This document shows, one piece after another, positions 29,614 to 37,130 of a stretch of DNA of 52,432 bases. Below the pieces are notes generated by a model, which saw only the letters and a program-made list of their open reading frames with translations, made no database searches and had not been told where the DNA came from. The position numbers were made by a program, and so were the translations under genes. This DNA comes from Escherichia coli (GTDB taxonomy: Bacteria > Pseudomonadota > Gammaproteobacteria > Enterobacterales > Enterobacteriaceae), in assembly GCF_003334315.1 (NCBI RefSeq), contig NZ_QOWR01000029.1. One strand, written 5' to 3'. Within the stretch, counting starts at the first letter, position 1. Every line of letters begins with the position of its first letter.

Positions 29614-29656
29614 TCAGTCCCCTCGCCCCATCGGGGAGAGGGTTAGGGTGAGGGGG
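29614..29656. repeat. GC-rich intergenic repeat (copy 1), gtcccctcgccccatcggggagagggttagggtgaggggg
   Basis: Near-identical in reverse complement to a block at about 37092-37130; internal dyad symmetry. Family name not assigned. Confidence 0.6.
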
Positions 29657-29706
29657 AACCCTCGGCACTATGCCAACATTCGCCAACATCCCCCCTCACT
29701 CTGACT

Positions 29707-31812
29707 TTAGTGCGCGCCTTTCGCCTGCGCTACGATCTCCTCAACATTTTCCGGCATCGGCTCATACGGCGTTTCTTTCGCCGTTGGCTTCGGATCTTTC
29801 AATGCCGCAAGTGCCGTCTTAATCGAGAACAGTGCCAGAACCACCACGACCACCATAAAGAAGATGGTTAACCCGGCATCCAGACGGTTATTGAACACCA
29901 GTTGCGCCAGCTGTGACTCAGTATACTGCGACGGAATATTGCCGCTGTCGATCATTGCCTGGAACTTATTAGCAATGGCCAGGAAGCCGACTTTCGCATC
30001 CGGGCTAAACGCTTTCTGCCAGCCTGCGGTCAGGGTACAAATCAGCAGCCAGGCCGTTGGTACCAGCGCCACCCAGGCGTAACGTTGACGTTTCATCTTG
30101 AACAACACCACGGCACAGAGCATCAGTGCCATCCCTGCCAGCATCTGGTTGGCAATACCAAACAGCGGCCACAGAGTGTTAATACCGCCCAGCGGATCGA
30201 CCACGCCCTGATGGAGGAAGTAGCCCCACGCCAGTACGCACAGCGCTGTTGCCAGCAGGTTAGCAGGCAGTGAATCGGTCCGCTTCAGGCCAGGAGACAC
30301 CACGCCCAGCAGATCCTGCAACATAAAGCGCGCAGCACGCGTACCCGCATCTACCGCCGTCAGAATAAACAGAGCTTCAAACAGAATGGCGAAGTGATAC
30401 CAGAACGCCACATCCATCATACCACCCAGCGCACCGTGCAGGATGTAAGCCATCCCCACCGCCAGCGTCGGCGCACCGCCCGCACGGGAAATGATCGACT
30501 GTTCACCCACTTCGCTGGCAATCTGGTTGAGCGTATCTGGTGTAATGCTAAAGCCCCAGCTACTCACCACCTGCGCGGCAGAAGCGACTACATCCGCCGT
30601 CCCTGCCGGAGCCAGTACCGCCATTGGGCTGTTCATGGCAAAATACACGCCCGGATCGATGATACAGGCAGAAACCAGCGCCATAATCGCCACGAAGGAT
30701 TCCATCAACATCCCACCGTAGCCGATAAAGCACGCCTGCCCTTCGTTCGCCAGCATCTTCGGCGTGGTGCCGGAAGAGATCAGCGCATGGAAGCCAGACA
30801 CCGCACCACAGGCGATGGTGATAAACAGGAACGGGAACAGGTTACCGGTCCATACCGGGCCAGTGCCATCGACAAATTTGGTCAGCGCAGGCATGGTCAG
30901 CGTCGGGCGCATAATCAAAATGCCTACCGCCAGACCGACGATAGTCCCGATTTTCAGGAAGGTCGAGAGATAGTCACGCGGGGCCAGCAGCAACCACACC
31001 GGCAGCACCGCCGCCACAAAACCGTAGCCCACCAGCATCCAGGTCAGCTGCACGCCGGTAAAGTCAAAGTACGGTGCCCAGGTCGGACTTTCTGCCACCC
31101 AGCCGCCAGAGATAATGGCGAAAATCAGGAACACCAGGCCAATCACTGACACTTCGCCAATGCGGCCCGGACGCAGATAGCGCAGGTAGATTCCCATAAA
31201 AATCGCCAGCGGAATGGTGAACGCAACGGTATACGTTCCCCACGGGCTATGAGTCAGGGCTTTCACCACGATCATCGCCAGTACTGCAAGGATAATGACC
31301 ATGATCATAAAGCAGGCTACCAGCGCAATCACCCCGGCAGTTGGCCCCATCTCTTCTTTGACCAGCTCACCCAGCGATCGACCGTCACGGCGCGTAGAAA
31401 CAAACAGCACCATGAAATCCTGCACCGCACCAGCGAGAACCACCCCGGCGAGCAGCCAGATCATCCCTGGCAGGTAACCCATTTGCGCCGCCAGTACCGG
31501 CCCAACCAACGGACCTGCTCCGGCAATGGCCGCAAAATGGTGACCGAACAGCACTTTCTTGTCCGTCGGCACATAGTCCAGCCCGTCGTTATGGCGCACC
31601 GCTGGCGTCATACGCGTCGGGTCAACCGCCAGCACATTTTTGGCGATATACAGCCCATAAAAACGGTAAGCGATCAGATAGATACAGACCGACGCCACCA
31701 CAATCCACAGCGCGTTGATCTGTTCCCCACGATTTAAAGCAATGTATCCCAGAGCAAATGCTCCCATTACAGAGAGCACTGTCCAGACGAGGTATTTCCC
31801 TGATTTGTTCAT
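29707..31812 (-). CDS. cstA: carbon starvation protein A (peptide/pyruvate transporter family)
   Basis: 701-aa polytopic membrane ORF recognised as CstA. Confidence 0.93.
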   Translation of the reverse strand: MNKSGKYLVWTVLSVMGAFALGYIALNRGEQINALWIVVASVCIYLIAYRFYGLYIAKNVLAVDPTRMTPAVRHNDGLDYVPTDKKVLFGHHFAAIAGAGPLVGPVLAAQMGYLPGMIWLLAGVVLAGAVQDFMVLFVSTRRDGRSLGELVKEEMGPTAGVIALVACFMIMVIILAVLAMIVVKALTHSPWGTYTVAFTIPLAIFMGIYLRYLRPGRIGEVSVIGLVFLIFAIISGGWVAESPTWAPYFDFTGVQLTWMLVGYGFVAAVLPVWLLLAPRDYLSTFLKIGTIVGLAVGILIMRPTLTMPALTKFVDGTGPVWTGNLFPFLFITIACGAVSGFHALISSGTTPKMLANEGQACFIGYGGMLMESFVAIMALVSACIIDPGVYFAMNSPMAVLAPAGTADVVASAAQVVSSWGFSITPDTLNQIASEVGEQSIISRAGGAPTLAVGMAYILHGALGGMMDVAFWYHFAILFEALFILTAVDAGTRAARFMLQDLLGVVSPGLKRTDSLPANLLATALCVLAWGYFLHQGVVDPLGGINTLWPLFGIANQMLAGMALMLCAVVLFKMKRQRYAWVALVPTAWLLICTLTAGWQKAFSPDAKVGFLAIANKFQAMIDSGNIPSQYTESQLAQLVFNNRLDAGLTIFFMVVVVVLALFSIKTALAALKDPKPTAKETPYEPMPENVEEIVAQAKGAH

Positions 31813-31992
31813 AGTTGTTATCCGTGTGCGTGTCCATAGAGATGTTACATTTTGTTTCTATAACATCTTTGTACGATTTAACAACACGGTAACCATGTAA
31901 ATCGGAGTTGAAACCAATATTTAACTTAACAATGTTAACTCGATCACTCCGTTAACCGAGTTTTCCTGCAATCTCATTTAATTCTGTCGGGC

Positions 31993-32406
31993 TCATCCCA
32001 AAACTGCCGTACCCAGCCGACAAGTGCAGCAACGCCGCCCCTGTTCATCGAAAACGACGATTTCCCAGCTCTGATTTTGCCGCCCAAGATGCAGCGGCTG
32101 GCAGACGCCGCGTACCTTGCCTTCAGACACCGGGCGATGATGGGTGGCGTTAAGTTCCGTACCCACCACACACTGCCCGTCACGGGTCATCATAAATCCG
32201 GCCATCGATCCCAGCGTTTCAGCCAGCGCCGCCGACGCGCCGCCATGCAGCAGGCCAAACGGCTGATGAGTACGGGTATCAACCGGCATTTCGGCTTCCA
32301 GCACATCATCTCCCAGACGGGTATACACAATTCCCAGATGCGCCACCATTGTGTTATCGCTGGTGGCGTTCAGTTCGTCGAGCGTTAAATGGCGTTTCCA
32401 GATCAT
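31993..32406 (-). CDS. entH: proofreading thioesterase of enterobactin synthesis (hotdog fold)
   Basis: 137-aa [46 protein letters not shown]... recognised as EntH (YbdB). Confidence 0.93.
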
Positions 32407-32408
32407 GC

Positions 32409-35636: not shown

Positions 35637-35645
35637 CCTCGCTCC

Positions 35646-36821
35646 TTAATGCAATCCAAAAACGTTCAACATGGTAGAAAGTTTGACGCCTGTTTCGCGC
35701 CACTCACCCAACGGTGACGACGCAGGCACAATCCCCGCTCCGGCAAACAGACGCACCTGATTTTCCCGCAGCTTCGCGCAGCGGATGGTCACCACCCATT
35801 CGCCGTTACCTTCGCTGTCACACCAACCCACAATGCCGCCAAACAGTTCGCGGTCGAATGGCTCCAGTTCAGCAATAACCTGGGTCGCGGCCTGATGCGG
35901 GAAACCGCTCAGCGCGGGGGTTGGATGCAGCAGACAGGCCAGAGTCAGTGCGTTTTCTTGCGAATTCGCTTTACCTTCAAAGGGAGTTGCGAGATGCCAC
36001 AGCGTCGGCGTGGTAATCAATTGTGGAGAGGAGGGAACGTGTAACTCACTACTGCGTTCGCGCAGTACCTCTTTCATCGCCTGAGTCACCAGTTCATGTT
36101 CATGGCGATCTTTTTCTGACGCCAGCAGACGATTACCCGCTTCGCGATCGAGCACTTCATCCGGCTGACGACGCGCGGAACCGGCTAACGGAATGGAGCT
36201 AAAACGCTCGCCGTCTTTACGTAGCAGCAGTTCCGGGCTGGCCCCCAGCAGGACGCCACCATCAGCCAGCGGAACATGGAAGTTGTAACTAACCGGGTTT
36301 TGCGCAATCAACCGTTCCAGCAATACGCCACTATCAATGGCGGCGTCAGTGGTGATATCAATCAACCGTGACAACACCACTTTGTCGACCTGCGGCGTGG
36401 CGGTAAGTGCGGCGGCGCGGGCAACCATCTGTTCAAACGTGGTTTGCTCCGGAATTGCCTGGCGTTCCACCACATTCAGCGACTGGCTGCGGGTGAAACG
36501 GCGTGCGGAAGCTTGTTTTTCCTGACGGGAGAACGACTGCCAGGATTCAGGAATATACAGCGACGAAGGCTGACGTGGATCGAAGGGAATCGCCCCGACC
36601 ATCACCGGATTTTTGATGCCCTGCGCTTTGGCATCGGCAAACAGCGCGGCGAGTTTTTGCTGGAAGGGACTGTCGGGCGAATCCCCGTTCACAGCCGGTT
36701 CATCGAAGCGGGCGAAACATCCTGACGTCGTAAAACTGCGGTACGGCGACATAAAGAAAAAGCGATTGGGCGCAAGTGTTGCCATGGTCTGCTGTACTTC
36801 CTCAGCCAGTGACGTATCCAT
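35646..36821 (-). CDS. entC: isochorismate synthase
   Basis: 391-aa product starting [30 protein letters not shown]; track ORF trimmed by 4 codons. Confidence 0.95.
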
Positions 36822-36850
36822 ATCATCCTCCACAAAATGATAAAGGCTTT

Positions 36851-36869
36851 AATAATGATTATCATTTAT
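36851..36869. promoter_or_regulatory. Fur box in the entC / fepB divergent control region
   Basis: aataatgattatcatttat closely matches the Fur consensus GATAATGATAATCATTATC; located about 30 bp upstream of the entC start. Coordinates approximate. Confidence 0.7.
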
Positions 36870-37028
36870 ATTTTCGGTCGCTAACCTAAAAGCAAACGCG
36901 CACTATGTCAACTCTTGAGGTAACGCAATCTGCAACTCGGGGTTGCATCTGGTTGTGGTTACAATGAAAATGAGAAGCATTATTGATGGATTCGCATAAG
37001 CGCAATGTGATGTCCTGCGCCGTTCTGC

Positions 37029-37130
37029 CCCCTCTCCCTTCCAGGGTGAGGGCTGGGGTGAGGGTTAATGTTCGCACCAGTGCTGGCTGTTCCCCTCACC
37101 CTAACCCTCTCCCCAAAGGGGCGAGGGGAC
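37029..37130. repeat. GC-rich intergenic repeat (copy 2, composite): partial forward copy plus full inverted copy, in the fepB 5' region
   Basis: cccctcaccctaaccctctccccaaaggggcgaggggac (about 37092-37130) is the reverse complement of copy 1 with 2-3 mismatches; the preceding ggggtgagggtt block gives a long inverted repeat. Confidence 0.6.

Follow-up and report, generated by a model that had tools for sequence, protein, structure and literature searches.

Two GC-rich palindromic blocks are present in a 52,432-nucleotide stretch of Escherichia coli DNA (contig NZ_QOWR01000029.1, from a strain other than K-12; the whole stretch is called here the window), one in the cstA-ybdD spacer and the other in the entC-fepB spacer, and both are members of the known intergenic repeat named BoxC, PIT, TMECO or HPG. 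The copies are very probably dispersed selfish or neutral passengers, the inverted pair found upstream of fepB being an insertion of one part of the E. coli lineage and the cstA-ybdD copy an older, eroded one. Since its description in 1992 the repeat has also been characterised biophysically, and both loci are in print, so the likeness of the two blocks adds nothing new by itself. The entC-fepB site is ancestrally empty, and the same core occurs in a miniature inverted-repeat transposable element (MITE) of another phylum, which suggests that the “genomic instability” ascribed to the motif is partly gain by insertion and reopens the question of how BoxC spread.

Similarity of the two blocks and family identity

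The original prediction, made from the letters of the window, was that a block near 29614 recurs in inverted form near 37092, and this is confirmed. The 40-mer GTCCCCTCGCCCCATCGGGGAGAGGGTTAGGGTGAGGGGG at 29617-29656 (+) has an inverted copy at 37091-37130 with 3/40 mismatches, two of which are in the hairpin loop and one of which is terminal, and a repeat search extends the inverted match to 54 nt with 85% complementarity (29602-29655 versus 37092-37145). A 37-nt pattern with the loop left free matches the window only at the 29617 and 37091 blocks, with 0 matches expected from 100 shuffles. The gene map (Table 1), in which gene identities are backed by 100% matches to annotated E. coli chromosomes, also places the sites where they had been said to lie, in the cstA-ybdD spacer and the 5' region of fepB. 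A further copy at 37030-37065 (+) is direct with respect to the cstA-ybdD copy and inverted with respect to its fepB neighbour, with which it forms a pair of 41-nt arms, 76% complementary and separated by 28 nt, in the repeat search. It had been described as a partial direct copy that builds a long inverted repeat; the long inverted repeat is there, but the copy is not partial, being a diverged type B member that matches the whole family consensus.

A chance likeness of two GC-rich stretches, or an assembly artefact, finds support in the high G+C of the blocks (72%, and 52% for the window) and in nothing else. The similarity is significant, as no match is expected in shuffled sequences, and thousands of independent complete genomes contain these sequences; this explanation is already refuted and its probability is practically nil. 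The open reading frames (ORFs) at 29507-29704 and 36983-37192 both exist and were rightly taken for artefacts of the repeat. A coding reading of them is rejected, their peptides being repeat-derived and of low complexity, with no RefSeq gene under the sampled copies and with one of the two ORFs almost wholly missing in half of the E. coli genomes.

The TMECO consensus, CCCTCNCCC N3-6 GGGNGAGGG N3 GGGNGAGGG (Holder et al. 2015, PMC4666352), has three exact matches in the window, located at 29620-29654(+), 37030-37064(+) and 37093-37127(-), with 0 expected by chance. Two variants of the motif are described, type A, in which loop 2 is TTA, and type B, in which loop 2 is CCG-like, and these are paired in inverted orientation at some sites (PMC4666352). 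In the TMECO list of Holder et al. (Table 1, PMC4666352), the fepB copies correspond letter for letter to no. 7 and no. 8, which are found in MG1655 at 624579-624614 (no. 7, type A with one mismatch) and 624676-624641 (no. 8, type B) and make one of the five inverted A+B pairs of that chromosome. The entC-fepB spacer of the window is identical to that of MG1655 throughout. The table of HPG1 motifs includes both fepB/entC (no. 17) and cstA/ybdD (no. 19) (Kaplan et al. 2016, PMC5100583), and the G-rich half of the cstA-ybdD core is identical to the HPG1 motif GGGAGAGGGTTAGGGTGAGGG. In K-12 MG1655 the cstA-ybdD copy has a third G block altered by a single G-to-A change; the block reads GGGTGAGAGGG and corresponds to window positions 29647-29655, whereas it is intact in the window strain. 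With this third block the K-12 allele fails the triplex-motif pattern, which explains why the cstA-ybdD copy is missing from the MG1655 table of Holder et al., yet present in that of Kaplan et al.

TMECO is the BoxC of the 1990s (Bergler et al. 1992), which was renamed PIT by Hoyne et al. 2000 (PMC4666352). BoxC is listed among the known E. coli stem-loop families with 22-32 copies of 50-56 bp (PMC2267715) and, to judge from its citation in PMC4666352 and PMC2267715, is also covered by the survey of Bachellier, Clement and Hofnung 1999. Classification against catalogued repeats, which the original prediction had proposed as a check, thus assigns both blocks to BoxC/PIT/TMECO/HPG, and the family and both loci were already in the literature, since both loci sit in published tables.

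Copy number in E. coli genomes

A 50-nt probe (window 29611-29660) was searched in 5,426 complete E. coli genomes and matches 70,315 places in 5,390 of them, with a median of 15 places per genome and a range of 1-27. The genome-wide count, also proposed with the original prediction, describes a dispersed family and excludes the outcome of a sequence found at only two sites. Nearly all places are chromosomal (70,286 of 70,315), 29 are on plasmids, and no annotated RefSeq feature was found under the sampled matches. A perfect 38-nt BoxC core is present on the 154.7-kb E. coli plasmid NZ_CP074792.1, at positions 1627-1664. Holder et al. report no association of TMECO with transposons, phages or plasmids (PMC4666352), and family members lie 5' of genes, 3' of genes or in the gap of convergent genes and show no bias in orientation or function (PMC4666352, PMC5100583). 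In other Enterobacterales the number of copies varies according to Holder et al., from 0 in Salmonella to about 140 in Enterobacter asburiae.

The entC-fepB block is a derived insertion

The block that contains the fepB pair is carried by 2,755 of the 5,426 complete E. coli genomes and is absent from about 2,670 (~49%). In every sampled genome with the empty allele the match is 186-187 bp shorter (294-295 bp versus 481), and in Nissle 1917 the missing piece is exactly 36980-37165, with TTA at both junctions. Citrobacter koseri has an entC-fepB spacer of 187 bp with the same uninterrupted junction, in which ...ATGAAAATGAGAAGCA is followed directly by TTAAC..., and the empty junction formed by GAGAAGCA and TTAAC is the same in Nissle 1917, C. 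koseri and a second outgroup contig, with a FepB of 90% identity. Because C. koseri and the second outgroup contig share the empty junction, the empty state is ancestral and the block is a derived insertion. The pattern expected of a MITE, filled sites beside ancestrally empty ones, was found at entC-fepB only.

The insertion point lies between the fepB promoter and Fur operator, on one side, and the AU-rich and Shine-Dalgarno region, on the other. The 186-bp block would have entered just downstream of the promoter and operator in one part of the E. coli lineage and would have lengthened the leader from an AU-rich stretch of about 31 nt to the K-12-type form.

Two Fur-box-like AT-rich sequences are present in the divergent entC/fepB control region, at 36843-36871 and 36964-36982, with the palindrome TAATAATGATTATCATTTAT near entC and GAAAATGAGAAGCATTATT at the fepB promoter. 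The BoxC block starts within the last three positions of the second Fur box, where ...CATTAAC becomes ...CATTATT. A metagenome contig, ERZ650259 NODE_11141, encodes a FepB 90% identical to the query and has a BoxC leader identical to that of E. coli; it begins inside the spacer of the pair, and this start may reflect a break in assembly at the repeat, or a chimeric or recombinant sequence.

Anatomy of the element

The core consists of three 9-mers: one rich in C, then, after a short loop, a G-rich one complementary to it and, beyond a 3-nt loop, another G-rich one. In E. coli it carries a family-specific flank of about 30 nt and often stands in an inverted type-B/type-A pair, which makes a palindrome of about 100-190 bp. 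The window sites were aligned with four paired and one solo MG1655 sites. In this alignment a conserved flank of about 30 nt, GGGGAC-TGAcCGAGcaC-TTTT..TTGTCAT, comes after the type-A core; at adk and fepB this flank is read as AATTCGAnAAAGCGCgCAC in the opposite orientation. The spacer common to the paired sites is TAAATGTTCGCACCAGTGCtGGcCTGTTC. Four further sites of K-12 have the same B/A inverted architecture as entC-fepB. In the fepB block, the left end (36980-37016) is an inverted, diverged copy of the right end, the A-type flank at 37128-37165. The left half of the block and the reverse complement of its right half are identical in 59/111 aligned columns, which are mostly in the cores. 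The flank of the cstA-ybdD core (29597-29619) is common to the A-type flanks at entC-fepB, ygfF-gcvP, alx-sstT, hrpB-mrcB and adk-hemH.

Table 1. Repeat elements, control sequences and neighbouring genes of the two spacers, in window coordinates
Feature	Position	Strand	Description
ybdD	29328-29525	-	
REP, separate family	29559-29592	+	Exact copy at 51492-51525
A-type flank	29597-29619	+	Outward from the core: GGGGAC TGACCGAG TGCG TTGATAGC
BoxC/TMECO core, type A with one stem mismatch (A mm)	29620-29655	+	cstA-ybdD spacer; CCCTCGCCC-CATC-GGGAGAGGG-TTA-GGGTGAGGG-G; consensus match
Pair-spacer remnant and truncated opposite arm	29656-29701	+	Aligns with the spacer of intact pairs
cstA	29707-31812	-	
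entC	~35646-36821	-	
Likely fepB promoter	36943-36979	+	TTGCAT-17 nt-GAAAAT, overlapping a Fur-box-like sequence; hexamers at 36943-36971 read by eye; conserved in C. koseri
Block with BoxC pair	36980-37165		186 bp, i.e. 183 bp plus TTA repeated at both junctions; long imperfect palindrome
BoxC/TMECO core, type B	37030-37065	+	CCCTCTCCC-TTCCA-GGGTGAGGG-CTG-GGGTGAGGG-T; consensus match; TMECO no. 8
Spacer between inverted cores	37066-37091		TAATGTTCGCACCAGTGCTGGCTGTT; loop of the long hairpin; conserved among K-12 paired sites
BoxC/TMECO core, type A mm	37092-37127	-	CCCTCGCCCCTTTGGGGAGAGGGTTAGGGTGAGGGG; consensus match; TMECO no. 7, HPG1 no. 17
A-type flank	37128-37165	-	Read on the + strand: ACGGATTGTGCGCTTTGTCGAATTTGTCATTACGCCC
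AU-rich region and Shine-Dalgarno sequence before the fepB GTG	37166-37195	+	TTAACCTTATTAATAACAGGAAGCTGATTT; in filled alleles, empty alleles and outgroups
fepB	37196-38152	+	

The cstA-ybdD copy and the neighbouring REP

Judged from its sequence, the cstA-ybdD site is a decayed remnant of a paired element, which keeps a full A core, its flank and most of the spacer. The last block is all that is found of the opposite arm, at 29690-29701, where the reverse complement of GAGTGAGGGGGG abuts the cstA stop codon. A 10-bp tandem duplication occupies 29672-29691, and one of its copies is missing in strain GON1437. The site would thus be an older paired unit that lost most of one arm and stands beside an unrelated REP.

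The 181-bp cstA-ybdD spacer (29526-29706) has at least four allelic forms in E. coli: one holds both REP and core, GON1437 has the REP alone, EF5-18-41 the core alone and TUM1223 neither of them. The REP, located 27 bp from the BoxC core, is a separate 34-mer whose presence is independent of that core, and the block does not belong to the REP family, in agreement with the original prediction that the two elements are distinct.

In the TUM1223 allele a different small hairpin, GCCCTCCTGAATTAAGAGGGC, takes the place of the REP. The second copy of the REP in the window, at 51492-51525, is directly upstream of the Rfam match to the small RNA ES036 (CssrF) at 51527-51568. Other Rfam matches above the gathering threshold in the window are the rnk leader at 17586-17694 and STnc70 at 22907-23000(-). 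A cspA-type thermoregulator 5' untranslated region (UTR) is also matched at 4158-4600(-), probably in front of a cspA paralogue.

The fepB leader and the predicted RNA folds

RNA folding was a further check proposed for both spacers, and it predicts very stable structures. The filled fepB leader is predicted to fold into one long hairpin of -98 kcal/mol (-77 ± 5 in shuffles, z -4.3), the outer stem of which is made by the two A-type flanks, with the AU-rich and Shine-Dalgarno region outside it. The leader of the empty allele is predicted to be unstructured (-5.9 kcal/mol, z +0.8). The RNA of the cstA-ybdD spacer, which is read from the minus strand, reaches a predicted -86 kcal/mol (z -4.25) and forms three hairpins, made by the remnant arm with the third block, by the BoxC core and by the REP. 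On transcription the fepB block would give one long hairpin, with the AU-rich and Shine-Dalgarno region left free.

The fepB leader studied by Hook-Barnard, Brickman and McIntosh in 2007 is said to be 217 nt long, and its effect on expression reportedly maps to an AU-rich enhancer, outside the block. Papers that cite this work do so for its AU-rich enhancer of translation and for the GUG start codon. A transcription start near 36979, placed from the hexamers read by eye, would fit that length of 217 nt. The insertion appears to stand at about +2 and to supply ~86% of the K-12-type leader (186 of 217 nt), and the ancestral leader would be the AU-rich and Shine-Dalgarno stretch of about 31 nt that survives at 37166-37195. 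A promoter and terminator scan of 36780-37260 shows no terminator-like site and gives promoter-like matches only around the entC-side Fur box, the proposed fepB hexamers falling below its threshold.

The original prediction held that the blocks could form stable RNA structure that affects processing or translation. The structural part of this claim is upheld by the predicted folds, while a role in expression is not needed to explain the data. If the hairpins were locus-specific RNA elements, selected to control the processing, stability or translation of fepB and ybdD, one could point to folds as stable and non-random as those predicted above, and to a fepB block whose start is a few nucleotides from the likely 5' end, a position at which a hairpin might shield the mRNA; a long duplex might also serve as a substrate of RNase III. 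The support for this idea comes only from the predicted fold energies. The block, however, is absent from about half of the E. coli genomes and from the outgroups, where the leader is short and predicted to be unstructured, and the cstA-ybdD spacer occurs in its four alleles with and without the core and with and without the REP. The family has no positional, orientation or functional bias (PMC4666352, PMC5100583), and PIT elements showed no promoter or terminator activity in published tests (Hoyne and Maher 2002, according to the summary in PMC4666352). No known cis-regulatory RNA or intrinsic terminator is indicated: the gathering-threshold Rfam scan of the whole window gives no family at either BoxC site and the scanned fepB region contains no terminator-like site; Rfam also gives no match at the C. 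koseri locus. A locus-specific regulatory role is therefore unlikely, and the explanation by selection at these two loci is given little probability.

Under the preferred reading, that of dispersed selfish or neutral copies, any effect on the expression of fepB or ybdD would be a by-product of the RNA hairpin and not the work of a conserved regulatory device. The fepB leader is a model for translational enhancers, and the strains with filled and empty sites offer a natural contrast, of the isogenic kind, for the effect of a long 5' hairpin on an iron-regulated mRNA.

Variation at other loci and DNA structure

Other BoxC loci show decay. At alx-sstT, some strains lack 76 bp, deleted between the pair's two direct copies of CCCTCTCCC, and what is left is a simple hairpin. 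At ygfF-gcvP, B2 strains are without ygfF and without the pair up to the end of the A-flank. At three further loci, alleles hold no more than a flank or a last block, or have been replaced: the flank is kept at hrpB-mrcB, lldD-trmL has remnants only and at adk-hemH the segment is replaced. None of these five loci (alx-sstT, ygfF-gcvP, hrpB-mrcB, lldD-trmL and adk-hemH) gave a second clean filled and empty junction, and so the TTA duplication rests on one case. Altogether, deletion or replacement makes six of the seven examined loci polymorphic, and insertion the seventh, entC-fepB. The decay alleles match the categories “intergenic change”, “region missing” and “palindrome effect” of Holder et al. 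(PMC4666352).

In some E. coli strains, E24377A among them, an unrelated GC-rich block of ~290-400 bp stands at alx-sstT in place of the pair and its flanks; it contains several long palindromes, and Rfam gives no match for it.

Holder et al. propose that the motif is a DNA element of non-B structure, in which the G-rich strand, when single-stranded, folds into an intrastrand purine-motif triplex or switches between G-quadruplex and hairpin, and the folded strand would stall replication or repair and make a hot spot of deletion and rearrangement. Published circular dichroism (CD) and nuclear magnetic resonance (NMR) data show a stable oligonucleotide triplex, and there is more variability around TMECO loci (PMC4666352); CD also shows G-quadruplex/hairpin switching (PMC5100583). 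In our folds of the single DNA strands of the cores (ViennaRNA, which computes hairpins only), two competing hairpins are predicted, in which the C block pairs with either G block, and these predicted hairpins match the published hairpin, triplex and G-quadruplex alternatives. The polymorphism of the seven loci points the same way. In vivo, however, dimethyl sulfate (DMS) footprinting did not support the triplex, and duplex DNA gave no triplex signal (PMC4666352). Literature that Holder et al. cite holds that RNA does not form purine-motif triplexes (PMC4666352). The deletions are explained by plain slippage between the 9-bp direct repeats of the palindrome, for which a triplex is not needed, and the largest polymorphism at entC-fepB is a gain and not a loss, so part of what is called instability reflects insertion. 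As the explanation of the two sites, DNA structure is rather improbable, although it is compatible with the reading of dispersed passenger copies and may explain their decay.

The core outside E. coli

A scan of species-representative genomes with the consensus gave at least 120 loci, a figure that shows the breadth of the distribution and is not a count of taxa or copies. Among the matches listed are Anaerolineales, Dehalococcoidia, Planctomycetota, Melainabacteria and a Candidatus Moraniibacteriota metagenome-assembled genome (MAG), as well as Hyphomicrobiaceae, Pelagibius, Hydrogenophaga, Ottowia, Burkholderiaceae, Azonexus, Competibacteraceae and Sedimenticola, and in these listed matches the flanks are genome-specific.

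In the Anaerolineales MAG JAUXWL01, a 33-nt core lies inside a repeat of ~190-220 bp that has at least 14 near-identical copies. This repeat has terminal inverted repeats, (T)TAGGGTCTGTAAA...TTTACGAACCCTAA, also read as TTAGGGTCTGTAAA/TTTACGAACCCTAA, with TA/TWA at both junctions, and inside it are also another, related hairpin (CCCTTCCCCCGAAAGGGGAAGGG) and an optional module of 28 nt. Many contigs of the MAG end at the repeat, and some copies abut another repeat. The JAUXWL01 repeat is a typical MITE.

Origin and mobility

The BoxC copies would have spread as small palindromic insertions and then decayed by slippage between their internal repeats, most likely as selfish or neutral passengers. 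A more definite proposal is that the pair is a non-autonomous mobile element, inserted as a palindrome of about 183 bp that duplicates TTA, whose core would be recognised by a mobilising enzyme, possibly one that acts on single-stranded DNA, and whose insertion at about +2 of fepB would have made the K-12 leader. The core is nearly letter-perfect in genome-specific repeats of MITE size in Chloroflexota, Planctomycetota, Melainabacteria, the Moraniibacteriota MAG and alpha-, beta- and gamma-Proteobacteria, among the matches listed. We hold this proposal of a MITE-like origin as possible but less likely than not.

Several points weigh against the reading of mobile, neutral copies as a whole. One of the seven loci gave a clean filled and empty pair; at the six others the alleles are decayed or replaced, and the 3-bp TTA that flanks the single clean insertion could be due to chance or microhomology. 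We know of no transposase or other mobilising activity that has been linked to BoxC. A core that is almost letter-perfect across distant phyla fits badly with pure neutrality and may reflect a constraint on sequence or structure, and the long stem-loop may have a measured effect on fepB expression. Holder et al. take the same variability as structure-induced instability and not as mobility (PMC4666352).

Comparison with known repeat families

BoxC is a GC-rich imperfect palindrome of ~50-56 bp, intergenic and present in tens of copies per E. coli chromosome, and the window copies are the same; core plus flank measure here ~55-70 bp, which makes no substantive difference. As TMECO/PIT elements, the three copies of the window fit the consensus exactly, and the one at cstA-ybdD is without an entry in the MG1655 table. 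HPG1/HPG2 (PMC5100583) share the G-rich half, which Kaplan et al. read as a regulatory switch between G-quadruplex, hairpin and duplex, with presence and absence among strains not considered.

REP/BIME elements are likewise short GC-rich extragenic palindromes, often located in 3' or inter-cistronic spacers. BoxC differs from them in its unrelated sequence, its far lower copy number and its independent presence, and we know of no RAYT-type transposase associated with it.

MITEs such as ERIC/IRU, Correia/NEMIS and RUP differ from E. coli BoxC, in which terminal inverted repeats are weak outside the cores, one clean insertion is found and no parent insertion sequence (IS) or transposase is known. 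They are nevertheless like the fepB block in being long imperfect palindromes of 100-200 bp that form hairpins in UTRs, and in their polymorphism between filled and empty sites with a short junction repeat, which at fepB is TTA.

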